From a virus (lineage: Duplodnaviria; Heunggongvirae; Uroviricota; Caudoviricetes), in IMG/VR virus record IMGVR_UViG_2778261515_000017, positions 1 to 9,631 of that record: 9,631 nucleotides of DNA. One strand, written 5' to 3'. A program made the translations under genes and the position numbers. Of this stretch, positions 1 through 9,631 are shown one piece after another. Under the pieces are notes generated by a model. The model saw only the letters and a list, made by a program, of their open reading frames with translations, did not search any database and had not been told where the DNA came from. The first letter of the stretch is position 1; each line of letters starts with the position of its first letter.

Positions 1-1257
1 GTGCTTACCGATACAAAATTAAAAAACCTCAAGCCGCAGGACAAACTGTACAAAGTCTCCGATCGTGACGGGCTGTATGTAGCTGTGCTTACGTCAGGTA
101 CGGTCTCATTTCGCTATGACTACCGTATCAACGGTCGCCGCGAAACACTGGTAATCGGGCAGTATGGGCGTGACGGTATCAGCCTGGCAGAAGCGCGGGA
201 AGAACTGATTGCTGCAAAGAAGCTGCTTAAAGCAGGCCAGTCACCGGCTGCGGCTAAACGTGACGGTATCAAAAAGATTCGTGGTGCCGAGACGTTTGCG
301 GTACATACCGACAGTTATATGAAACACGTCATCCTGGCTGACAGTACCCGCGCAATGAAACAGGCGGTGATCGACCGTGACATACTTCCGGTTCTTGGCA
401 ACAAAATGATGGCTGAAATTACCACATCGATGGTTCGTGATTTATGTGACCGGATTGTCGAACGCGGTGGCCGGGCAACAGCAGTACAGGCCAGGGAGAT
501 CATCAGCAGCGTATACCGTCACGCCAATGACCGTGGTCATGGTTTGTTTAATCCTGCGGCTGACATTAAACCTTCGTCTATCGCCATATTTAAACCACGA
601 GAGCGAACACTGACACCAGAAGAAATTGGTCTGTTCTTCCGTATGCTGGATGCCATTGGTGCTATGGGCACTATGAAAATGGCTTTAAAGCTGGTGCTTA
701 TCACTATGGTTCGTAAAGGCGAATTCACCAATGCAACGTGGGATGAAATAGATTTTAAAAAATGGACATGGACAATTCCTTCAGACCGCATGAAGGGAAG
801 TCGGGCGCACGTTATTTACCTGCCTAAACAGGCACAGGATATATTAATCGGGTTGCAGATGTGCGCTGGTGGAAGTGAATATCTGGTTCCTGGTCGTTAC
901 AATTTCCGGAAGCCATTATCTAATGCCGCGCTGAACTCTCTGATCGACAGAACGGTGAAAATAATAAATGAAGATGGTGAGCATATTCAGGACTTCACTG
1001 TACATGATATGCGCCGTACAGCCAGTACGTTGTTGCATGAGGCTGGTTATCCTTCAGACTGGATTGAAAAGGCTCTGGCACATGAGCAGAAAGGTGTGCG
1101 CGCCGTATATAACAAAGCGGAATACGCCAGACAGCGCGCCTACATGTTGCAGCAGTGGGCAGATATGATTGATTCCTGGATTAACGGGGAGCATACGGAT
1201 CTGATTCCGTTCTCCCCGTCGAAGTTTGAGAGGTGGATGGAAGGCAGTAATAAATAA
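1..1257 (+). CDS. int: Phage tyrosine integrase (P4-type, DUF4102-like N-terminal arm-binding domain plus catalytic domain); GTG start at position 1, so the CDS may begin at or just upstream of the window edge
   Basis: 418-aa ORF. N-terminus MLTDTKLKNLKP...GLYVAV...FRYDYR matches the conserved start of P4-family integrases. C-terminal HDMRRTAS...LAHEQKGVRAVYNKAEY matches the catalytic H-x-x-R ... Y region of tyrosine recombinases. Identification is from motif memory, not a search. Confidence 0.85.
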   Translation: MLTDTKLKNLKPQDKLYKVSDRDGLYVAVLTSGTVSFRYDYRINGRRETLVIGQYGRDGISLAEAREELIAAKKLLKAGQSPAAAKRDGIKKIRGAETFAVHTDSYMKHVILADSTRAMKQAVIDRDILPVLGNKMMAEITTSMVRDLCDRIVERGGRATAVQAREIISSVYRHANDRGHGLFNPAADIKPSSIAIFKPRERTLTPEEIGLFFRMLDAIGAMGTMKMALKLVLITMVRKGEFTNATWDEIDFKKWTWTIPSDRMKGSRAHVIYLPKQAQDILIGLQMCAGGSEYLVPGRYNFRKPLSNAALNSLIDRTVKIINEDGEHIQDFTVHDMRRTASTLLHEAGYPSDWIEKALAHEQKGVRAVYNKAEYARQRAYMLQQWADMIDSWINGEHTDLIPFSPSKFERWMEGSNK

Positions 1258-1259
1258 TT

Positions 1260-1919
1260 CTATCCTTCCTGGACTTTGGTAAGCGTCAGATTTCCGCAGA
1301 ACACTGCGCCGGTGTCGATGTACATCTGGTTTGCATACACCAGTGGGTGATGTGCTGGCGTATGACCGAAGATGAACAAATCGGCACCGGTTATCTCCGA
1401 GACAATACCGTCCTGCGCGCCGCTAACCCGCTCACGATTCCATATCACCATTTCTTCCGGTACTGGCTTATCGAATGCGTATTCGTTGTGCGGGTAGTCT
1501 GCGTGGCAGATGACGACCTTCTTATTGCCGGTAACCAGTTCGATAATCATCGGGAGGTTGGTAATCTTTGGCAGAAGGTATTTGAGTTTCACATCCTGCT
1601 CAGAATCAAGTTGGTGCCACCATCCACCGCCGTTTGACATCCAATGTCCGAAACTTCCGCCGTTGACCAGTGCATCCAGCATCATCTGCTCATGGTTGCC
1701 ACGAACAGCTCGGAACCACGGCATAGTAATCAAATCCAGGCATTCGACGTTTTCAGCGCCGCGGTCAACAAGGTCACCAACGGAAATAAGCAAATCGCGC
1801 GCCGGGTCGAATGAAACTTTGTCGAGTTCGTTCATCAGCAGCGTGTAGCACCCATGCAGATCGCCGACGACGAAGATATTGCACCAGTCAGCGCCATTGA
1901 TGCGTTGATATAGGTTCAT
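1260..1919 (-). CDS. Ser/Thr protein phosphatase, lambda PPase (NinI)-like metallophosphoesterase
   Basis: Translation from the internal ATG ([26 protein letters not shown]...GDLVDRG...GNHE...FIFGHTP...) carries the calcineurin-like GDxHG/GDxxDRG/GNHE motifs and is near-collinear with lambda PPase as I recall it. SD GGGAG 8 nt upstream of the ATG at 1919. The 40-codon upstream extension of the track ORF overlaps the methylase gene and is rejected. Confidence 0.85.
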
Positions 1920-2566
1920 GCTACACGCTCCCGCCCCTGGTTGTCTGTTGGTGACAGCGGAGCATTGCTGAATGCATTTGTTAATCCGCCAATATCCAAC
2001 GCGTATCCAGGATGTAGTTGCACTGCCGGGTCTTCGCACTGATTACCCCAAACATCGAAGCCATGAGACGACTGGCGGGCGAACAGTTCAATGCGAGAAA
2101 CATCGCCTAACAATTGCACAAGTTTTTCACGAACGATATCTGGTTTTCTTGAATGCTCAAGCCGCGGTGCGGTAAATGACTGAACGATCCCTGCATTAAT
2201 GCGCGTAGGTAGTTTTCCCTTTACCGCAAACAGGCAATCTTCACTATTGGCGCGAGTCATGTGTCCCATACCCATAACCAGTTTATCTGGTTGTCGGCTA
2301 CCACATTTTATCCACGTGAAGCCCTTCATCGTCATCAGACGAAATCCCCAGGCTTCAACAACTTTTAGTGCTTCGAGTGGTTGTGTTGGCACCCACCACA
2401 TGGCCAACAGACAGTTTTCAGCGGTCAAATCCCACACAGGAAGGCGGCAGATATCCAGCACACTCATAACAGGATATTTAAAGCCGGCACCGCGATTACC
2501 ATCTGCGGCTTTGTCCCGGTATACCCAGGGTGGATCTGCATAGATTAGTGTGTATTTCTTAGTCAT
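1916..2566 (-). CDS. MT-A70-family N6-adenine DNA methyltransferase (DPPW motif)
   Basis: [14 protein letters not shown]...; the DPPW catalytic motif is characteristic of the MT-A70 family. ATG at 2566 preceded by a G-rich SD; the GTG at 2578 is an alternative start. Its TGA stop overlaps the phosphatase ATG (ATGA). Confidence 0.75.
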
Positions 2567-2858
2567 AAACCACCCCACAACATCCTATGCCGCTATAGTC
2601 GCCACGGCGAAGGCCGTTACCTTTTGTGATACATTGGTCCCTGCGAACCGCGATCCTTGCACGCTCAACATCACCAGAAGCAACATCCATACACTGAAGC
2701 CAAAGGTGAGCGGCAATGCGGAACTGCCCTTTTTTCTCTCTTTCAATCGCGCGTTTTTCGATCTCTATCGCCGCAGGAGTAACGGCGACAATCTTTGACG
2801 GACTGCGCATTGAAACCTTGTTCATGTGATATTTTTCAAGTCGGCTTAACTTTCTCAC
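2559..2858 (-). CDS. ANR-family-like small protein (putative small regulator); start ambiguous (GTG 2858 with SD GAGAGGG, or ATG 2825 without clear SD)
   Basis: 99-aa ORF. Central ...GQFRIAAHLWLQCMDVA... resembles the conserved core of small prophage proteins annotated as ANR family, from memory. Overlaps the methylase start by 8 nt. Confidence 0.45.
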   Translation of the reverse strand: MRKLSRLEKYHMNKVSMRSPSKIVAVTPAAIEIEKRAIEREKKGQFRIAAHLWLQCMDVASGDVERARIAVRRDQCITKGNGLRRGDYSGIGCCGVVYD

Positions 2859-2967
2859 TTAATCCAACCCTCTCTGAAAATTAATGCCAGCAGATAAAGC
2901 CATGCTGAAACAGAGGCCAGGAATAAGTACCATCCTGACCATTTGCTCCAGTGCCTTAGCAGCGCAC

Positions 2968-3216
2968 TCATGCAGCGTTGCTCACAGGACGATATACACG
3001 TTGCTGAACAGGAGGCTTTTTACCTTGGAACTCTGCCGGGCTTGCTGCCTGACGTTCATCAAGCCAACGCTCAACTTCGTCACGGTTCCATGCGCAGCGT
3101 TTGTCAGTGATATACCAGCGTTTAGGAAATTCCCCTGCGCGCTCCATACGGTCGATAGTGCTCCATGACAGTGGCACCACCGCCAGGAGTTCCTTCTTAC
3201 CTAATGCACCTTTCAT
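2968..3216 (-). CDS. AlpA-family HTH DNA-binding protein (MerR-like prophage regulator / candidate excisionase)
   Basis: 82 aa. LLAVVPLSWSTIDRMERAGEFPKRWYITDKRCAWNRDEVERWLDER fits the AlpA/Xis-type pattern (S-x-ST-I-x-R ... G-x-FP ... W ... EV-x-WL). SD GAGG 5 nt upstream of ATG 3216. Confidence 0.7.
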   Translation of the reverse strand: MKGALGKKELLAVVPLSWSTIDRMERAGEFPKRWYITDKRCAWNRDEVERWLDERQAASPAEFQGKKPPVQQRVYRPVSNAA

Positions 3217-3265
3217 AAATACCTCTCTTGGTTGCAGTGCGGCGCGCGTGGCGCCGCGGTGGTGG

Positions 3266-4207
3266 TTACATAGATGTTTCGTTTAATTCTTCCCGACGAA
3301 CGCTGTAAACGTCGGTGGCTTTTGCCAGCAGTTCGTCATCATCTGAAAGTTTTTGTGCAATGTATTTGTAAGCCTTATCCAGTTCGGAGACAGTGCTGTA
3401 ATTCATCGCTGCGCTGGTAAAGGCCATCAGCATTTCTTCTGGATCACGGCTATCCGCTTTACGCGTTTGCTCATCAGGCTTTTTCACTGTTTTAGCGTTG
3501 ATCAGACTATTAATTCCCGCAGCCGTAGTTGTTTGCGGAGTAATGTCTCGCTCAACGCGCGGTGCCGTTTCCTGTAATTCGTCAGGTGTATAGACGCCCA
3601 TGATTACGTCAGGACAGTGCAAGCGAGACCAGCGTTTTGTCGCAAGGTATGCGAGTTGTTGTTTCGGATCGCTGGCCCAAAGTGTGGAGTTTCTTACCTG
3701 TGCCTGAGACAGCATTAACTCGAGCACTCGAGGTTGATCCTCTCCCTTCATGGTTGCCCATACGCGAACACCGCAGCCTTCTTCGTCTTTTATAGTCCAG
3801 CCTGGTGCGATATACGGATTGCCGTTTTTGGATGTTTTCTCAACAAACTTACCGATCACGCGTTCCCACGGCCCGAACCACTCGTAGTTGATGCGATCTT
3901 TTGTTGGCGACATTGTTGAGATAACTGCGTTTACTAATTGGGCTTCATAACCTAGCGTGCCGTTCACAACATGGGTTTTCTGAGCCACGGCAAACGGGTT
4001 CATTCCCCACTGCGCAGCCTGCATTGCCACGGCCATGCAATCAGCTGGTTTCCCGGCGAGGTGCGCCGGTACCGTTACGCGGCTTTGCGCCATTACCTCG
4101 GCGAATTTCATCAGTTGGTTCAAGCCGTCTGGGCTGAAAATAGTTGCAGCAGTGCCAGCGATTGCTGTGTCTACTGGTGCGTTGATGTTTGCGATGTTGT
4201 TGCTCAT
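3266..4207 (-). CDS. recT: RecT/Redbeta-family single-strand annealing protein
   Basis: 313 aa. Shares an ERDITP segment with lambda Bet as I recall it, and sits immediately downstream of an exonuclease gene with a 4-nt ATGA start/stop overlap, the typical exo-SSAP pair. The family call has not been checked by search. Confidence 0.72.
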   Translation of the reverse strand: MSNNIANINAPVDTAIAGTAATIFSPDGLNQLMKFAEVMAQSRVTVPAHLAGKPADCMAVAMQAAQWGMNPFAVAQKTHVVNGTLGYEAQLVNAVISTMSPTKDRINYEWFGPWERVIGKFVEKTSKNGNPYIAPGWTIKDEEGCGVRVWATMKGEDQPRVLELMLSQAQVRNSTLWASDPKQQLAYLATKRWSRLHCPDVIMGVYTPDELQETAPRVERDITPQTTTAAGINSLINAKTVKKPDEQTRKADSRDPEEMLMAFTSAAMNYSTVSELDKAYKYIAQKLSDDDELLAKATDVYSVRREELNETSM

Positions 4208-5025
4208 ATGTACATATCCTGTTTACGTGCCCAGTCAGGGCGTTTAATAATTTCCACGCCACCCCATTCATCATTGATGCGGCATTCGTGATAGGTATTC
4301 AGATCCCGGCGGAACAGAGCGTGCCCGGTATCGACATCCTTCGCATCCAGCTCGAACACGCGTACCGGATACCGACCACAATCAATGCTTTCGCTCACGG
4401 CAAGAAAGAAAAAACCATGCGGCTGACCAGTAACCCTCATTGCGCCTTCACGGTACATTGCGTCCTGCACGTGGTAGCGGAATTCCTCGATGTGGCGAGC
4501 AAAACGATCCATATCTGCAACCTTTTTCACGTCGACGATTACGTTGTGCTCGTTCAGCCATTTGTCTGGACGAATTCGGCACAACTCACCCGTCTCTTCA
4601 TCGTTCCAGTACATTGATGCTTCGCAGTAACCAGGTGCTTCCAGCATCCAGCGTGCCGCCGGGTGAGCCATTGCGCTATCACGCATCAGCTCCAGTTTTC
4701 GCCACTGCTCTGCATCAAGTACCGAAATCCCCATATCCGCTACATCACGAATAAATGCCTCTTCGTCAGCTTTACCTTGTTTTGTCCGACGATCGAATTT
4801 CGGTGAAACGATGAAGCGTTTGTCAAACTCTCTAGGTTCCAGAAGCAGACAGTGCAGAGCAGTACCCATATCCAGTGCAGACTTCTTCTCTTCGTCTTCC
4901 GGAGCAGCCTTCACCCATTTCAGAAGGGCAGGGTTCTTAGCCACCATATCTAGCTGCGACTTACTCACGCCGTCACCGGCGTGGTAGTCCTCGTTGCTGA
5001 TATCGAAATAAATTCCCGGATTCAT
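4204..5025 (-). CDS. RecE-like PD-(D/E)XK exonuclease (nuclease domain only, DUF3799-like)
   Basis: 273 aa. N-terminal GIYFDISNEDYHAGDGVSKSQL resembles the start of the RecE catalytic domain. ...IRPDKW... and ...VIVDVKKV... fit D ... (D/E)xK nuclease motifs. SD GAGGG 7 nt upstream. ATGA overlaps with both neighbouring genes. Confidence 0.7.
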   Translation of the reverse strand: MNPGIYFDISNEDYHAGDGVSKSQLDMVAKNPALLKWVKAAPEDEEKKSALDMGTALHCLLLEPREFDKRFIVSPKFDRRTKQGKADEEAFIRDVADMGISVLDAEQWRKLELMRDSAMAHPAARWMLEAPGYCEASMYWNDEETGELCRIRPDKWLNEHNVIVDVKKVADMDRFARHIEEFRYHVQDAMYREGAMRVTGQPHGFFFLAVSESIDCGRYPVRVFELDAKDVDTGHALFRRDLNTYHECRINDEWGGVEIIKRPDWARKQDMYI

Positions 5026-5321
5026 GCCGCGTCCCTCTGCCCATCAATCTGATCAGCCAGATCCCAGCGGGCGATAATTGCCATTGCCTCGCGCCGGTAG
5101 GCATCCATTAGTTCTTCGAACTCAGGGCTGTCTTTAGCGGCCTCCAGTACTTCCTGGCGAACGCCTTTAACTGTTACAACGTCGAAAGTTGATGCCAGTT
5201 GATGAAGCCGGATACTCTCAATCAGTTCAACTTGTCGGTCATATAGCTGTTCTGACAGGCGGTAGTCCTTGTCGAATGCCAGCATGATTTTTTGAAGATT
5301 TTTCTGCTGATTAACGTTCAT
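5022..5321 (-). CDS. Hypothetical protein (99 aa), unknown function, second gene of the pL-type operon
   Basis: ORF with a strong SD (GGGAGG) 7 nt upstream of ATG 5321 (MNVNQQKNLQ...). Its stop overlaps the exonuclease start (ATGA). No recognisable motif. Confidence 0.55.
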   Translation of the reverse strand: MNVNQQKNLQKIMLAFDKDYRLSEQLYDRQVELIESIRLHQLASTFDVVTVKGVRQEVLEAAKDSPEFEELMDAYRREAMAIIARWDLADQIDGQRDAA

Positions 5322-5323
5322 TA

Positions 5324-5476
5324 TCAGCCCTCCCATATCTCGTTATCGTTGGCCACATCGCGAGCTTCTTTGCTGACGAAAGCCCACTTAATGCCTTCCT
5401 GTAAGGTGCGGAACTTCCAGCTCATGAATCCGCATGCAGTAACGCAGTACCAACCGTTGATGATTTTCCACTGCAT
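5324..5476 (-). CDS. Small ORF (50 aa, Trp/Cys-rich), first ORF downstream of the pL-type promoter; candidate Kil-like or small regulatory peptide
   Basis: ATG 5476 with SD GAGGT 8 nt upstream; translation MQWKIINGWYCVTACGFMSWKFRTLQEGIKWAFVSKEARDVANDNEIWEG. TGA stop lies 2 nt before the next ATG. Below the ORF-track length cutoff; supported only by SD and operon context. Confidence 0.35.
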   Translation of the reverse strand: MQWKIINGWYCVTACGFMSWKFRTLQEGIKWAFVSKEARDVANDNEIWEG

Positions 5477-5495
5477 AACTTGTTACCTCGGTCTG

Positions 5496-5572
5496 TTACC
5501 GTTGAGGTAATAATTATGCGTATATGGTTTGATGTCAATAGATATGAGTTAAAAAAATTACCCGTTAGGTAA
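5496..5572 (-). promoter_or_regulatory. pL-type promoter flanked by two operator palindromes (OL region)
   Basis: Operators TTACCGTTGAGGTAA (5496-5510) and TTACCCGTTAGGTAA (5558-5572), centres 62 bp apart. On the - strand, a perfect -35 TTGACA (complement of 5533-5538), 17-nt spacer, -10 AATTAT (complement of 5510-5515) whose last base is the first base of the downstream operator. Predicted TSS near 5503. Confidence 0.55.
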
Positions 5573-5582
5573 TCGAATAGGC

Positions 5583-5609
5583 AATAAAAAAGCCGCCATA
5601 AGGCGGCTT
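5583..5609 (-). terminator. Rho-independent terminator downstream of the repressor gene (tImm-like)
   Basis: 8-bp GC-rich stem AAGCCGCC/GGCGGCTT (5590-5597 with 5602-5609), 4-nt loop, followed on the - strand by a U-tract (complement of the A-run 5583-5589). No T-tract follows on the + strand, so it is unidirectional. Confidence 0.7.
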
Positions 5610-5629
5610 ACTTACTGAAAAATATGGTT

Positions 5630-6214
5630 TTATTGTTTGTTTTTTTCGTTCTGGTTGATGACAAATTCAATGTAACTTTCGATCTTTGCTTTCTCGGTTT
5701 CGGGTAACAATGCGTAGCGCGAGCGGTCATAGTTGATAGTCGCGGGGTCGTGCGGGTGAATCAGTAATTCATAGCCGTGACGCCCGAATGCGGATGCAAC
5801 ATTCTCCAGGGTGGAAATGGAAACGCTAACCTCATTGTTTAACAGGCGGCTGATTGTCACCTGGGCGACGCCGGATGCGCGGTGAAGTTTTCCCTGAGTT
5901 GAAAGGTCGCGGCTTTCGCTCATCCAGCGTTCCAGGTTGTGAGCCGCCAGCTGACCAATGTCGCTTGGGCCGACAGGCTGAAAACCTTCCTGAGAAAGCG
6001 AGCGATCGATATCAAGCCAGTTACGGGGTTTATTGGCGGCAGCTTCAATTTTTCGCGCAACCTGGTCGCCGATAACCTTCTTGCCAAGAGCCCAGCGGTT
6101 TACCAGATTTGCCTGAGTTCCAAGTTTTTCTGCCATCCGCGTCTGAACACCATTGAATTCACGGTCGATCAAGTCGTTGAGATTTTGCCTGCGGACGTCC
6201 TGGATACTTTTCAT
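5630..6214 (-). CDS. Prophage repressor at the cI position: dual-HTH protein (CII-like N-terminal HTH plus XRE-type HTH), with no LexA/S24 peptidase domain evident
   Basis: 194 aa. ...TRMAEKLGTQANLVNRWA... resembles the lambda CII HTH; ...GKLHRASGVAQVTISRLLNNEVSVSISTLENVASAFG... is XRE-like. Divergent from the Cro-like gene across an operator-rich region and followed by a strong terminator, which is the lambda immunity-region topology. Weak or absent SD, possibly leaderless like cI from pRM. Confidence 0.65.
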   Translation of the reverse strand: MKSIQDVRRQNLNDLIDREFNGVQTRMAEKLGTQANLVNRWALGKKVIGDQVARKIEAAANKPRNWLDIDRSLSQEGFQPVGPSDIGQLAAHNLERWMSESRDLSTQGKLHRASGVAQVTISRLLNNEVSVSISTLENVASAFGRHGYELLIHPHDPATINYDRSRYALLPETEKAKIESYIEFVINQNEKNKQ

Positions 6215-6269
6215 TTTCTGGAAAATCGCCTCATATATGAATCAGTAGATGATTCAATTTAAAGCAATA

Positions 6270-6343
6270 TTACCCAACAGGTAAATGCACCCCATAGGTA
6301 ACTATCCTTGATTTTTGTTACCTTATGGGTGAATATTTATTAT
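6270..6343. promoter_or_regulatory. Divergent OR-type operator region between the repressor and Cro-like genes, with a pR-type promoter
   Basis: Operators TTACCCAACAGGTAA (6270-6284), degenerate GCACCCCATAGGTAA (6287-6301) and TTACCTTATGGGTGA (6318-6332). Rightward promoter candidates: -35 TTGTTA (6315-6320), 17 nt, -10 TATTAT (6338-6343); or -35 TTGATT (6308-6313), 17 nt, -10 GAATAT (6331-6336). Either overlaps the 6318-6332 operator. No convincing leftward (pRM-type) hexamers found. Confidence 0.5.
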
Positions 6344-6368
6344 CTGAAATAAATATCAGGCAATAGCT

Positions 6369-6599
6369 ATGAGCGATAACGGACATTTCGATTTCAAAAA
6401 GCACTGGCTTGCACTTACTCCGGATGAGCGTGAAGCCTTCGCACAGGAAGCCGGAACGACGAGTCACTATATCCATACTCACTTAACAGGTAAGCGCAAA
6501 ATGCCAGGTAAAGTATTGATGAATGGGCTTTTTAAAGCCTGTAAAACAAGACAATGGCTGCGCTCAAAAGCAGAACTGGCATACTTCTTCTACTCATGA
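6369..6599 (+). CDS. Cro-like small HTH regulator (first gene of the rightward operon)
   Basis: 76 aa. HTH-like segment FAQEAGTTSHYIHTHLTGKRKMPGKVLMNGLFKAC. Divergent from the repressor gene; its promoter overlaps an operator palindrome. Confidence 0.55.
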   Translation: MSDNGHFDFKKHWLALTPDEREAFAQEAGTTSHYIHTHLTGKRKMPGKVLMNGLFKACKTRQWLRSKAELAYFFYS

Positions 6600-6620
6600 T
6601 ATCCAGCCACAACCCTCTGT

Positions 6621-6645
6621 AGACCGCCATCCGGCGGTCTTTTCA
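6621..6645 (+). terminator. Rho-independent terminator after the Cro-like gene (tR1-like)
   Basis: Stem AGACCGCC (6621-6628) / GGCGGTCT (6633-6640), loop ATCC, followed by TTTTC. Confidence 0.5.
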
Positions 6646-6749
6646 TATCTATTCGTACCTCAAAGGTAATAAAAAACCAAATATGGTTGATCTTTTTTTT
6701 GTGTCAGCACAAAATAACCGTAATCCCAATACTAATAACAGGGCTTACC

Positions 6750-6950
6750 ATGGAAATCATTACACGTATTGATGCCGCAAAGCGCGGACTTAAACGCTAC
6801 TACACCGGAAAACCATGTAAGCACGGACATGACAGTGAACGCTGGGTTTACAACGGACACTGTGTTGAGTGCACCATGGAATCAAACCGTCGCATCAGGG
6901 CAGAGATTAAGCAGATCATGATTAATTCCTCCCCACAACACTCAAGCTGA
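6750..6950 (+). CDS. Small Cys/His-rich putative zinc-binding protein (66 aa) at the cII position
   Basis: ATG 6750 with SD CAGGG; MEIITRIDAAKRGLKRYYTGKPCKHGHDSERWVYNGHCVEC... with a C-x-H-x-H ... C-x-x-C pattern. The track ORF starting at 6687 uses a TTG and is rejected as an N-terminal extension. Confidence 0.5.
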   Translation: MEIITRIDAAKRGLKRYYTGKPCKHGHDSERWVYNGHCVECTMESNRRIRAEIKQIMINSSPQHSS

Positions 6951-6965
6951 TAGCGGAGATTAATC

Positions 6966-7799
6966 ATGAGCAGACATGCAACAGATTGGGCCTGGGAGAC
7001 AGATCCAGGTAGCTCGTCATTAAAGCTCATACTGCTCTCGATGGCTGACAGAGCCGATGAATATAACCTCTGCTATCCCAGCATAGAACGCCTAGTTAAA
7101 GACACTTGCCTGAATAAAAAAACCGTACAGGCCGGGCTTATATCGCTCATGAAAATGGGGCTTATTTCAGATACCGGAGAGAGAAAGGGAGCGACGAAAA
7201 GAGTGCGGGTTTTCTCTCTTAATATAACCAAAAACGGGAACATTAAAGGCAACCGGGAAGGGGGTAACGATCCCAAAAACGGTAATGTTACCGAAAACGG
7301 GAATATACCCAAAAACGGGATGTTGAATGATCCCAAAAACGGGATGTTGAATGATCCCAAAAACGGGATCCAGAACCAGTCATATAACCAGTCATTTAAC
7401 CAAGAGAGGGAGAGCAGGACAAAAATCGGGGATTCCGTGCCCCATGACCCCGGCGCAAACAACGCCGTGATGAATAACTTTGTTCCTCCAGGTGGGCCAG
7501 GGCAATTAGGCAAATTTGTCATGCATGAACAATGGCAGCCATCAGATGACTTTCTTCGGAAAAGCTCATTGCAGGGAATCTACCTGGGCAGTCTGCCAAC
7601 GGCACAGGAACTTGCAGAGTTCAGAATTTACTGGATGGCTGAGGGTAAGGCATACCATCAGGCGCAGTGGGAGCAGAAGCTGGCAAGGCGCATCCAGTTC
7701 TGTAGACAGAAATCAGGTGAAGTCAGAAAGAGCCTTGACTGGCATAACACTGACTGGATAGATGAGGTGTGGGATGAAATCAACTCCAGAACTTCTTAA
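6966..7799 (+). CDS. Replication initiation protein (O-like): N-terminal winged HTH, central iteron-encoded repeat linker, C-terminal DnaT-like domain
   Basis: 277 aa. N-terminus LKLILLSMADRADEYNLCYPSIERLVKDTCLNKKTVQAGLISLMKMGLI is typical of phage replication-initiator HTH domains. The central NDPKNGML repeats are encoded by the DNA iterons. Immediately upstream of the P homolog. SD GGAG 7 nt upstream. Confidence 0.75.
   Translation: MSRHATDWAWETDPGSSSLKLILLSMADRADEYNLCYPSIERLVKDTCLNKKTVQAGLISLMKMGLISDTGERKGATKRVRVFSLNITKNGNIKGNREGGNDPKNGNVTENGNIPKNGMLNDPKNGMLNDPKNGIQNQSYNQSFNQERESRTKIGDSVPHDPGANNAVMNNFVPPGGPGQLGKFVMHEQWQPSDDFLRKSSLQGIYLGSLPTAQELAEFRIYWMAEGKAYHQAQWEQKLARRIQFCRQKSGEVRKSLDWHNTDWIDEVWDEINSRTS
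7228..7405. repeat. Origin-of-replication iterons inside the O-like gene, plus downstream short direct repeats
   Basis: Six copies of the core CC(A/G)AAAACGG at about 7229, 7273, 7291, 7308, 7332 and 7356. The last three are spaced exactly 24 bp apart and form the palindrome ATCCC-AAAAAC-GGGAT, resembling lambda ori iterons. Followed by AACCAGTCAT direct repeats at 7374-7383 and 7386-7395. Four GATC sites fall within 7269-7370. Confidence 0.65.
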
Positions 7800-8556
7800 T
7801 GAGTACTATCGCTTTCGTGGTGGGCATGACCACTCGACGGTGGTTGCTTCTGCTGACGATGAAAGGGCAAAGAAGGAGCAGGTTGCAAGAATTTTCAACG
7901 AAATGTTTGTCCAGTTGCAGGCTGCATTTCCAGGCAGCATCGCTGCTATCAGCGAACAGGGAAAGCTAAACGAATTTCGAAAACAATGGATGCTTGCGTT
8001 TCTGGAGAATGGGATCACTACAATGGAACAGGTTAACGCTGGTATGCGCCACGCCCGCGCCAGTGAATCTCCGTTCTGGCCGTCGCCTGGGCAATTCATC
8101 AAGTGGTGCAAAGACAGCAAGATGGTTCTTGGCGTCACCATTGACGATGTGATGGCGGAGTTTCATCGGTACAGCAAGGAAAAAAGTTTATATCCTGGTG
8201 GTCCAGAAAGATTCCCGTGGCGACATCCGGTTATGTACTGGGTTGTATGTGATACCCGCCGCGCAATGTATCAGCGCCAGCTTAGCGAGATTGAGGTTGA
8301 GAAACACGCGCGCAGGCTGCTCGATGATTGGGCGAAAAAGGTGGCTTCCGGACAGCAGATACCCGATCCGGTGATCAGCATACAGGCAAAGCCAGAACCC
8401 ATGAGTACGCCTCCGGACACAGGGAGAGACGTTTACCATCCACCAGGGCGAAGTTTCGGGTGCATGCCTAACGCCGCCACCCTGGGGGGAATAACACCGG
8501 CGCAGTGGCTGATGGAGGAATACAGGCGGGGAAAGGCGGCAGGATTTATCAAGTAA
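7774..8556 (+). CDS. P: Replication protein P homolog (DnaB helicase loader)
   Basis: Contains ...FLENGITTMEQVNAGMR...FWPSPGQF..., near-identical to the lambda P segment FRENGITTMEQVNAGMR...FLPSPGQF as I recall it. ATG 7774 with SD GAGG; 26-nt overlap with the end of the O-like gene. Confidence 0.85.
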   Translation: MKSTPELLNEYYRFRGGHDHSTVVASADDERAKKEQVARIFNEMFVQLQAAFPGSIAAISEQGKLNEFRKQWMLAFLENGITTMEQVNAGMRHARASESPFWPSPGQFIKWCKDSKMVLGVTIDDVMAEFHRYSKEKSLYPGGPERFPWRHPVMYWVVCDTRRAMYQRQLSEIEVEKHARRLLDDWAKKVASGQQIPDPVISIQAKPEPMSTPPDTGRDVYHPPGRSFGCMPNAATLGGITPAQWLMEEYRRGKAAGFIK

Positions 8557-8560
8557 TACC

Positions 8561-8581
8561 AGCGCGATAGCGCATTTTTTT
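8561..8581 (+). terminator. Weak terminator-like hairpin plus T-run just after the P stop codon
   Basis: Short stem AGCGC / GCGCA around loop GATA, then a T-run 8575-8581. The stem is only about 5 bp, so this is marginal. Confidence 0.3.
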
Positions 8582-8593
8582 ACGTCTCAATAA

Positions 8594-8670
8594 TTACCTA
8601 TTGGGTAATAAAATATTCTAAACTCTATTGATTTCGTGTCTTATGTGGTTTTTAATTACCTCAAGGGTAA
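8594..8670 (+). promoter_or_regulatory. Third operator-flanked promoter (P3) upstream of the DUF1064-like gene; same geometry as the pL-type cassette
   Basis: Operators TTACCTATTGGGTAA (8594-8608) and TTACCTCAAGGGTAA (8656-8670), centres 62 bp apart. -35 TTGATT (8628-8633), 17-nt spacer, -10 TTTAAT (8651-8656) ending on the first T of the downstream operator. Gap from upstream operator to -35 is 19 nt, as in the pL-type cassette. Confidence 0.5.
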
Positions 8671-8673
8671 ATC

Positions 8674-9021
8674 ATGAGAAAACAGATACAGGCTCTTGGT
8701 CGACTCAAAACAGGCCAGATGAACAAAACAGAATCTGCGTATTGCCAGCACCTTGAGCAGCGTAAACGCGCAGGGGAAATCGCCTGGTATCGATTCGAGG
8801 GTATCAAGCTGCGGTTAGCCGACAACACGTTCTATACGCCCGATTTTGCTGTGATGCTCGCCACCGGAGAGATGGAACTGCACGAAGTGAAAGGGGGATT
8901 CTGGACCGACGACGCCAGGGTGAAAACCAAAGTAGCCGCAGATCAGTATCCGTTCCGAATCATCGGGGTAACGGTTAAACCAAAGAAAGCAGGTGGTGGC
9001 TGGAACATCGAAGAATTCTGA
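8674..9021 (+). CDS. DUF1064-family phage protein (possible PD-(D/E)XK-like fold)
   Basis: 115 aa. ...NKTESAYCQHLEQRKRAGEIAWYRFEGIKLRL...YTPDF...ELHEVKG... matches the DUF1064 signature as I recall it. Its start codon lies 4 nt downstream of an operator palindrome. Confidence 0.6.
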   Translation: MRKQIQALGRLKTGQMNKTESAYCQHLEQRKRAGEIAWYRFEGIKLRLADNTFYTPDFAVMLATGEMELHEVKGGFWTDDARVKTKVAADQYPFRIIGVTVKPKKAGGGWNIEEF

Positions 9022-9082
9022 ATCGACGATCTTTTTAGTTATCAATGTAATCAATAAGTTATGTGGATAAGCGAGGGTAAAG

Positions 9083-9631
9083 ATGGAAAGTATGGCTGAA
9101 GGTACGATCAAAGATTTAGTGGCATCAGGACATGCGTTAGCTGACGACATGACAGGTGCACCATCCGTGCTTGTTCGCTGTTTGGCAACGCAACTGGAAG
9201 TACAACTGGTGCGTGCTAATGCGCTGGCCGAAGACCGCATCACCACCGAACACTGTCAGGCGCTGGCGCTGGAGAACGACACCGCGCGTCAGGTGCAGGT
9301 GTTTGAAGCCGCCTGTCAGTCGGGATGGGGCGGTAAACCGGAAGTACAGACCATTCGTCGTCTGGTGACCGAAAGTGAAGTGGCGGTGGCGGGGAACAGT
9401 AAATTCCGCTTCGTGGGGGCTGATGCCTTCTCGCCAGACGAACTGCGCACCGATTTGTTCAGCGATGACGGGGACGGTTATGTCGACCGCGTGGCGCTCG
9501 ATGCCGCCCTGCTGGAAAAACTCCAGGCTGTCGCTGAACACCTTCGGGAAGCCGAAGGCTGGGAATGGTGCGCCGGACGCATGGAGCCTGTCGGTGAGTG
9601 CCGTGAGGATGCCGGAACATACCGCTGTCTG
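9083..9631 (+). CDS. Unknown acidic protein, 3'-truncated by the window edge (at least 183 codons with no stop); GC-rich relative to the rest of the window
   Basis: ATG 9083 with SD GAGGG 5 nt upstream; the frame stays open to the window end. Translation MESMAEGTIKDLVASGHALADD... is protein-like, whereas the overlapping minus-strand track ORFs look like GC-driven artefacts. No recognisable family. Confidence 0.45.
   Translation, partial: MESMAEGTIKDLVASGHALADDMTGAPSVLVRCLATQLEVQLVRANALAEDRITTEHCQALALENDTARQVQVFEAACQSGWGGKPEVQTIRRLVTESEVAVAGNSKFRFVGADAFSPDELRTDLFSDDGDGYVDRVALDAALLEKLQAVAEHLREAEGWEWCAGRMEPVGECREDAGTYRCL

Follow-up and report, generated by a model that had tools for sequence, protein, structure and literature searches.

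Do three genes that are chained together by overlapping stop and start codons, and that encode a PerC-like protein, an adenine methyltransferase and a protein phosphatase, form a single functional module? The question is raised by positions 1260–2858 of a 9,631-nucleotide stretch of viral DNA (IMG/VR record IMGVR_UViG_2778261515_000017, positions 1 to 9,631; hereafter the window). The window covers the early region next to the integrase gene in a temperate podophage prophage of the phiV10/epsilon15-like type (Uetakevirus), located beside guaA in Escherichia coli. An E. coli chromosome gives a 100% match, in which the locus adjoins guaA and lies between guaA and the phage replication genes. The Uetakevirus phages BP9 and PAS61 match the window at 98%, and phiV10 matches it throughout except at the phosphatase. 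We consider it probable that the three genes form the tail of this prophage's leftward early operon, at the end farthest from the promoter, and that this tail is built from two independent pieces: a PerC-like gene coupled to a methylase, and an exchangeable slot for the last gene, which here is occupied by the phosphatase.

The three genes, the integrase gene that they face and the exchangeable cassette are the following (amino acids, aa; open reading frame, ORF):

1260–1919, minus strand: lambda-PPase-like (NinI-like) Ser/Thr phosphoprotein phosphatase, 219 aa, final cistron of the operon (Pfam Metallophos; 1G5B match; PHROG 246)
1916–2566, minus strand: MT-A70-family (beta-class) N6-adenine methyltransferase, 216 aa, with DPPW at residues 11–14 (Pfam MT-A70; alignment)
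2559–2858, minus strand: PerC-family small protein, 99 aa from a GTG at 2858 (Pfam PerC; PHROG 868)
1–1257, plus strand: P4-type tyrosine integrase (Pfam Arm-DNA-bind_3, Phage_int_M and Phage_integrase; PGAP; guaA upstream)
1241–1913, no strand assigned: exchangeable 673-bp cassette, comprising the phosphatase ORF after its ATG and the last int codons (blastn break against phiV10)

A reading made from the letters of the window alone (the sequence-only reading) had described these three genes and their overlaps, and both the ORF listing and a direct reading of positions 1000–3100 confirm them as three successive minus-strand ORFs. The phosphatase and methylase genes share an ATGA (phosphatase ATG at 1919–1917, methylase TGA at 1918–1916), and the methylase and PerC-like genes overlap by 8 nt (ATGACTAA; methylase ATG at 2566–2564, PerC-like TAA at 2561–2559). 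The integrase gene is convergent, its stop codon lying 2 nt from that of the phosphatase gene. Pfam and NCBIfam searches, together with the 1G5B match, bear out the identities given to the methylase and the phosphatase, and the NCBI Prokaryotic Genome Annotation Pipeline (PGAP) already labels all three genes in this way in hundreds of genomes.

The exchangeable last-gene slot

Between the methylase gene and the convergent integrase gene lies a swap slot with two alleles, of which the phosphatase is one. When the window is aligned with phiV10 using blastn, homology ends at position 1240, in the last int codons, and restarts at 1914, two bases before the ATGA. At this place phiV10 contains a 203-bp cassette with a 64-aa DUF1382 gene, which is likewise joined to the methylase gene by a 4-nt ATGA overlap. 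Since homology resumes at 1914, the ribosome-binding site and the ATGA belong to the slot and not to the phosphatase. Slot occupancy was counted using a query composed of the two flanks only, both of which are present in 513 E. coli genomes. In 55 records sampled at even intervals, two spans only were seen, one of ~1273 bp with the phosphatase (17 records) and one of ~803 bp with DUF1382 (38 records). Independent counts place the phosphatase cassette in 143–146 of the 513 genomes (~28%), while ~70% of prophages that are otherwise 97–99% identical carry DUF1382 instead. Alleles of the phosphatase with at least 95% DNA identity are always located beside an integrase gene, and the nearest copy in a nin region is only 79% identical.

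Epsilon15 and Tyrion have yet other small genes at the slot position. Among 157 MT-A70 loci collected from other genomes and viral contigs, a phosphatase is found nearby only in four phiV10-like contigs and in one Ewingella nin region, where the order is NinB, methylase and then NinI ~860 bp further on. The pairing of methylase and phosphatase, which the sequence-only reading had expected to be conserved in related prophages, is thus absent from phiV10, epsilon15 and Tyrion as well as from most of the E. coli prophages. One phiV10-like IMG/VR contig (L100, 2777–4307) keeps the phosphatase cassette; its nearest upstream ORF is p39-like and ends ~75 nt before the methylase start, and no PerC-like ORF was detected within 3 kb upstream of its methylase gene.

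The phosphatase scores 58.8 bits with Pfam Metallophos and matches lambda PPase (1G5B) with E=1e-99, the alignment to lambda's gene product being gap-free over residues 1–217 at 67% identity. It keeps the GDxHG, GDxVDRG and GNHE motifs and all nine of the catalytic residues D20, H22, D49, R53, R73, N75, H76, H139 and H186, which we take to be the metal-binding, phosphate-binding and general-acid positions described with 1G5B. Judged by these residues, the protein is expected to be enzymatically active. Its scores fall short of the NCBIfam equivalog cut-offs for both PrpA (NF008516; 263.5 versus 326) and PrpB (NF007425; 221.6 versus 332). A lambda-PPase orthologue normally resides in the nin region, between the replication genes and Q, and its position here, as the final gene of a leftward operon and next to int, is unusual, as had been recognized from the sequence. 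We know of no established biological role for lambda PPase itself. Our literature search on the biological or anti-defence role of NinI-type phage phosphatases returned nothing relevant, and the suggestion that the enzyme counters a kinase-type defence by dephosphorylation found no support there.

We propose that the Shine–Dalgarno sequence and the ATGA, both contained within conserved methylase sequence, would allow any ORF inserted into the slot to be expressed. The ORF inserted here would encode a lambda-PPase-type, Mn-dependent phosphoprotein phosphatase that is predicted to be catalytically intact, the place being taken mostly by DUF1382 in relatives. Because the slot is exchangeable, the action of the phosphatase would be separate from that of the methylase, with host phosphoproteins as its presumed targets.

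The PerC-like gene and the methylase

The small protein encoded upstream of the methylase passes the Pfam PerC model (PF06069; 30.3 bits versus a cut-off of 22.6) but not the NCBIfam ANR model (NF033650; 23.9 bits versus 32), which the corresponding neighbour in Serratia phage BZS1 passes with 50.9 bits. 'PerC family' is therefore a better name than the earlier label 'ANR-like', and PGAP also names the product a PerC family regulator. PGAP starts the gene at an ATG at 2810 (83 aa). This start is probably too short: homologues of 62–84% identity conserve the 16 N-terminal residues read from the GTG at 2858, with Y10 and H11 invariant, but not the internal methionines, favouring the 99-aa form. 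The GTG at 2858 overlaps the stop codon of an upstream 38-aa gene by 4 nt. A single-sequence search with the protein retrieved close Uetakevirus relatives only, and a profile search retrieved mostly proteins of the YfdN type, leaving out Pch- and ANR-type contexts. A PDB sequence search gave no meaningful match.

PerC-like genes recur upstream of adenine methylases. The counts that follow are raw, that is, uncorrected for shared ancestry. A PerC-like ORF is located upstream of the methylase gene and on the same strand in 42 of 44 epsilon15-like loci; it is adjacent in 19, and in the other 23 one to three small genes (for example, DUF1317 or a winged helix–turn–helix (HTH) gene) intervene. Adjacency is found in 18 of the 18 phiV10-like contigs that have a PerC-like gene, and in locus L032. 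The 113 MT-A70 loci of other backgrounds comprise 6 in which a PerC-like ORF abuts or overlaps the methylase gene, 2 in which it is further upstream and 105 with none, and those 6 loci have no other gene in common with the window. Every PerC-like ORF found in the 157 loci is upstream of the methylase gene and on the same strand. In Serratia phage BZS1, a bona fide ANR-family gene is located 2 nt upstream of the methylase gene.

The arrangement extends to a second, unrelated methylase family. In the CPS-53 prophage of E. coli K-12, yfdN, which is the only PerC homologue of K-12, overlaps the truncated methylase gene yfdM by 1 nt. The same overlap of a PerC-domain gene and a methylase gene is present, with both genes intact, in SfV, ST64B and mEp460. 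The methylase of this type belongs to PF05869 ('Dam'), has NPPY in mid-protein and shows no detectable similarity to the window enzyme. Six YfdN-type representatives were sampled, and in 16 of their 17 genomic places an adenine methylase follows immediately downstream (15 of PF05869 and 1 of MT-A70, the latter in Enterobacter at the same position). At least three phage lineages thus have a PerC-domain gene directly upstream of an adenine methylase gene, and the methylases come from two unrelated families. The pattern points to function more than to gene order alone and suggests that the two proteins are a functional pair. No literature linking PerC to adenine methyltransferases was found.

The PerC-like protein of the window would then most likely co-evolve with the methylase as its regulator or partner rather than be a free-standing virulence regulator. 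It could set the activity or the substrate of the methylase (as PNB-2 does in phage phiPA8), control its expression (as C proteins do in restriction–modification systems) or read the methylation state. A broader proposal, in which phage orphan Dam-like adenine methyltransferases have PerC-domain proteins as their dedicated partners or controllers and move with them in a mobile two-gene cassette, is made here tentatively, and in this general form we hold it to be possible but doubtful.

The same loci can be read in another way, with the three genes as unrelated passengers (morons), the PerC-like protein as a transcription factor that works by itself at host or phage promoters, in the way that PerC and Pch act on ler, and its proximity to the methylase gene as inherited order. 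PerC, Pch and ANR are indeed known regulators without a methylase partner (Pfam and NCBIfam descriptions; PMC5931665), and most MT-A70 loci are without PerC. The gene directly upstream of MT-A70 methylases is also highly variable: there are 109 distinct immediate neighbours, including DUF1317 (12), PerC (9), SpoVG (7), NinB (4) and several winged-HTH proteins. We nevertheless regard this explanation as unlikely, given that PerC-domain genes directly adjoin adenine methylase genes from two unrelated Pfam families, usually through a stop/start overlap, and that the PerC-like ORFs keep one orientation and one side throughout the 157 loci.

Other arrangements of these genes were observed. Enterobacter phage Tyrion has, directly upstream of its methylase gene, gp30 (L008, 1784–2011), which encodes a 75-aa winged-HTH protein (HTH_24/MarR-like) recalling PNB-2; its PerC-like gene is two genes upstream of gp30. 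An Enterobacter prophage (L178, 2001–4206) has a YfdN-type gene, an MT-A70 adenine methylase gene and a PF00145 cytosine-5 methylase gene in succession, each with a stop/start overlap, which makes it a double-methylase form of the SfV-type slot. Finally, some database proteins (P0151, P0152, P0164 and P0165) carry a PerC domain together with either a PF05869 Dam domain or a RusA domain on a single chain, which may reflect a natural fusion or an artefactual frameshift at the 1-nt overlap.

The methylase itself scores 79.1 bits with Pfam MT-A70 (PF05063; cut-off 23.9) and covers profile positions 1–172 of 172. DPPW (motif IV, residues 11–14) and a C-terminal RIELF.R block are invariant in an alignment of seven phage homologues, so that the catalytic motif on which the proposed enzyme depends is present. 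DPPW is N-terminal, ahead of the S-adenosylmethionine-binding region, which is the beta-class motif order, and it aligns with the structures of MTA1 and METTL3; the ciliate MTA1 complex and METTL3 are the closest solved structures. An enzyme of a Shiga toxin 2 (Stx2) phage (phiPA8/M.EcoGV type) is 82% identical over residues 1–187, the tails beyond being unrelated. The Stx2-phage locus used for this comparison contains the exact terminator quoted in PMC10810198, and the mutagenic primer matched it with one mismatch. BZS1_p32 of Serratia phage BZS1 is 40% identical.

Three relatives bear on specificity. BZS1_p32, expressed alone in a Dam- host, rendered DNA resistant to MboI and sensitive to DpnI, and is GATC-specific, as is M.EfaBMDam of Tn1549 (PMC7556043); the same specificity is listed for M.EcoGV of Stx phages (PMC6602927). 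By analogy with these enzymes, the window methylase would be expected to recognize GATC, and we judge methylation of GATC in DNA to be its likelier activity. The window shows no avoidance of the site, with 37 GATC observed against 37.6 expected from base composition and 48.9 from a Markov model. MT-A70 homologues at ~49% identity are encoded in many Clostridia (Firmicutes loci L048–L062 and similar), downstream of TrbL/VirB6-like and CD1107-like conjugative-element genes, a context that is probably of the Tn1549 type, as for M.EfaBMDam.

A different activity has been described for a close relative. Gong, Chakraborty & Koudelka (2023) reported that M.EcoPA8orf6770P of the Stx2a phage phiPA8 is nearly inactive alone and that, when complexed 1:1 with PNB-2, which the gene immediately upstream encodes, it prefers 16S rRNA (PMC10810198). 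Following this example, the PerC-like protein and the methylase of the window could constitute a 1:1 holoenzyme that mainly methylates RNA (16S rRNA) and thereby tunes translation and spontaneous induction. This would suit a catalytic subunit 82% identical to the phiPA8-type enzyme, an upstream gene that overlaps the methylase gene by 8 nt, an adjacency that recurs widely, and closest structures (MTA1/METTL3-type) that work as heteromers. However, BLASTP gave no alignment between PNB-2 and the PerC-like protein, and the C-terminal ~27–29 residues, proposed to bind PNB-2 in the enzyme from Shiga toxin-producing E. coli, differ in the window methylase. Moreover, relatives methylate GATC in DNA unaided, and epsilon15-like phages tolerate genes inserted between the members of the pair. 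We consider an rRNA-directed holoenzyme improbable. The idea that the C-terminal tail of the methylase co-varies with the type of upstream partner was also rejected: Tyrion has the tail of the window enzyme yet a winged-HTH gene directly upstream, and epsilon15 is without the tail but has PerC in the operon.

The leftward early operon and its surroundings

The sequence-only reading had placed the three genes at the distal end of a pL operon. The features upstream of them, all on the minus strand, are the following:

2855–2971, minus strand: 38-aa membrane-protein gene, phiV10p35-like (annotated in phiV10 and PAS61; PHROG 17484, E=2.6e-27)
2968–3216, minus strand: AlpA-family protein, probably an excisionase or recombination directionality factor (Pfam Phage_AlpA; PHROG 66, excisionase and transcriptional regulator)
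3266–4207, minus strand: RecT, upstream cistron of the same operon
4204–5025, minus strand: RecE-C-terminal/DUF3799 exonuclease, upstream cistron of the same operon
5022–5336 and 5324–5476, minus strand: two small ORFs, the first cistrons of the leftward operon
5496–5609, minus strand: leftward early control region, with a cI-like terminator (5609–5590), a promoter-like TTGACA-17-AATTAT (5538–5510) and TTACC-N5-GGTAA palindromes (5558–5572 and 5496–5510)
5630–6214, minus strand: cI-like repressor gene

Nine cistrons thus follow one another in the order of the two small ORFs, the RecE-like exonuclease, RecT, the AlpA/Xis-like protein, the 38-aa membrane protein, the PerC-like protein, the methylase and the phosphatase, with junctions of -13, -4, -4, +49, -4, -4, -8 and -4 nt (using the start at 2858). 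A minus-strand scan from 5510 to 1260 found no terminator, and a consensus scan ahead of the PerC-like gene found no separate sigma-70-like promoter. The TTACC-N5-GGTAA palindrome occurs seven times in the window against 0.14 expected. Its copies flank the promoter-like site and recur in the cI/cro intergenic region, which supports a repressor-controlled leftward promoter. With this promoter-like site and its operator-like palindromes lying downstream of the cI-like terminator, the operon may fairly be called pL-like, and the three genes are probably the distal end of a leftward, repressor-controlled early operon. They do lie between the AlpA-like gene and the integrase gene, as had been described, except that the 38-aa gene intervenes and that the integrase gene, being convergent, is outside the operon.

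Because overlaps run along the whole operon, through all nine cistrons, translational coupling is an operon-wide property and does not mark out a stoichiometric unit of three. A single co-evolved early module for counter-defence or host takeover, with methylation directed against restriction, dephosphorylation against a kinase-based defence and coupling setting the stoichiometry, is highly improbable: although the overlaps are real, the early-operon position is plausible, both enzymes look catalytically intact and the arrangement is stable at 98–100% identity in ~145 E. coli genomes and two isolated phages, the coupling is general, the phosphatase is a swap-slot allele that gives way to DUF1382 in most near-identical prophages and to other genes in other Uetakeviruses, methylase and phosphatase are not adjacent outside this lineage (being ~860 bp apart in the single nin-region case), and an anti-kinase role of NinI-type phosphatases is without support in the literature.

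We therefore return to the reading of two independent pieces. In its first piece, the PerC-like gene is translationally coupled to a small beta-class MT-A70 methylase that most likely forms N6-methyladenine at GATC in DNA, as Dam does. Expressed after induction or infection, the methylase would keep fast-replicating phage DNA fully methylated, which could protect this DNA from methylation-sensitive restriction targeting GATC and let Dam-dependent processes proceed normally. The proposed role of methylation against restriction is plausible in this usual phage-Dam sense only, the GATC specificity of the relatives being already that of the E. coli host.

Several points weigh against this reading. 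The phiPA8 enzyme, at 82% identity, has only weak activity on DNA in vitro (PMC10810198), and GATC methylation of DNA is contested within the methylase's own subfamily. An enzyme of this specificity also looks redundant, since E. coli already has Dam. The link between PerC and the methylase could be inherited gene order: one to three genes are inserted between the two in many epsilon15-like phages, and 105 of 113 MT-A70 loci outside this lineage are without a PerC-like gene. BZS1_p32, moreover, methylates GATC without its ANR-like neighbour (PMC7556043). Occupancy of the slot by two alleles is no proof that phosphatase and methylase never cooperate, and the promoter and the terminator were called by consensus matching only.

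The remainder of the window offers further observations. Palindrome sites are located at 8594–8670, 5496–5572, 6270–6332 and 6655–6669. The pair at 8594/8656 has a spacing of 62 bp, the same as that of the pair around the leftward promoter, and brackets a promoter-like TTGATT-17-TTTAAT just upstream of an ORF at 8674–9021 (115 aa). The arrangement suggests that a third promoter under repressor control lies between the replication genes and ORF 8674–9021. Tandem repeats at 7272–7402 (a 24-nt unit repeated 2.6 times at 100% identity, plus 18-nt and 12-nt arrays) are located inside a DnaT/O-like replication gene (6966–7799) and encode a repeated NDPKNGML peptide. By comparison with lambda O, these arrays are probably the iterons of the phage origin. 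The exonuclease and RecT genes are separate and overlap by 4 nt in the window, whereas the phiV10 RefSeq record has a single 1761-nt 'RecE-RecT fusion' ORF and the PAS61 annotation has two differently split pieces. In a host genome that is 100% identical to the window (L003, 17016–19613; from window position ~9215 onward), a ParB-like pseudogene without its N and C termini and then an ArdA antirestriction gene come after the phage replication genes, and the prophage beyond the right end of the window may be rearranged or mosaic. Rfam and tRNA scans of the window found no RNA family and no tRNA. A base-composition scan found no compositional island, the GC fraction being 0.45–0.53 across positions 1–4000.

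Comparison with known systems

The novelty of the locus is low: the families and the phage genus are known, and the genes are already annotated in RefSeq. Its interest is in the comparisons that it allows. The exchange of phosphatase and DUF1382 behind one ribosome-binding site in near-isogenic prophages is a natural experiment, which could yield a phenotype for lambda PPase, a laboratory reagent. The pairing of PerC with an adenine methylase offers a testable handle on the mechanism of the PerC family, whose members PerC and Pch switch on the locus of enterocyte effacement (LEE) virulence island. It also bears on the dispute about whether small MT-A70 enzymes act on DNA (at GATC) or on rRNA, and whether they do so with or without a partner.

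The closest known counterpart is p34–p33–p32 of phiV10, also present in PAS61 and BP9, which has the same 8-nt overlap of PerC-like and MT-A70 genes (97–100% identity), a last gene joined through ATGA and a convergent P4-type integrase gene. PAS61 and BP9 carry the identical phosphatase variant; phiV10 differs in having the 64-aa DUF1382 gene in place of the 219-aa phosphatase gene. A published mention of phiV10 (PMC3573123) names the phage solely for an acetyltransferase and has no bearing on these genes. The phosphatase, 67% identical to lambda PPase (NinI, 1G5B) without gaps and with all metal and phosphate ligands, is unlike NinI in lying beside int rather than in the nin region; relative to E. 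coli PrpA and PrpB, it is below both equivalog cut-offs.

The M.EcoPA8orf6770P–PNB-2 system of phiPA8 (M.EcoGV) resembles the window in its catalytic core (82% identity, with DPPW), in its location near the integrase end of a prophage and in having a small co-expressed upstream gene. It differs in its partner, PNB-2 being a 130-aa predicted winged-HTH protein unrelated to PerC, in its C-terminal tail and in having no downstream phosphatase; methylation of rRNA has been tested for the phiPA8 enzyme only. BZS1_p32 and M.EfaBMDam belong to the same Pfam family, are of the same size and have the N-terminal DPPW, and BZS1 also has an ANR/PerC-like gene directly upstream of the methylase gene and an integrase gene downstream. 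Identity is, however, only ~40%, and BZS1 is a myovirus with an unrelated genome.

YfdN–YfdM of K-12 CPS-53, orf40–dam of SfV and sb43–sb44 of ST64B are similar in that a PerC-domain gene is upstream of, and overlaps, a phage adenine methyltransferase gene. In these cases the PerC-domain protein has an extra N-terminal winged-HTH-like domain, the pair comes after the replication genes and the methylase is usually of PF05869 with NPPY. Finally, the PerC/Pch activators of the LEE and the ANR (Aar) anti-activators have the PerC core A.ELE.KG.YR.AA..W... in common with the window protein, whereas the gene of the window is a conserved operon gene of Uetakevirus, without a linked virulence regulon and with a score below the ANR cut-off.

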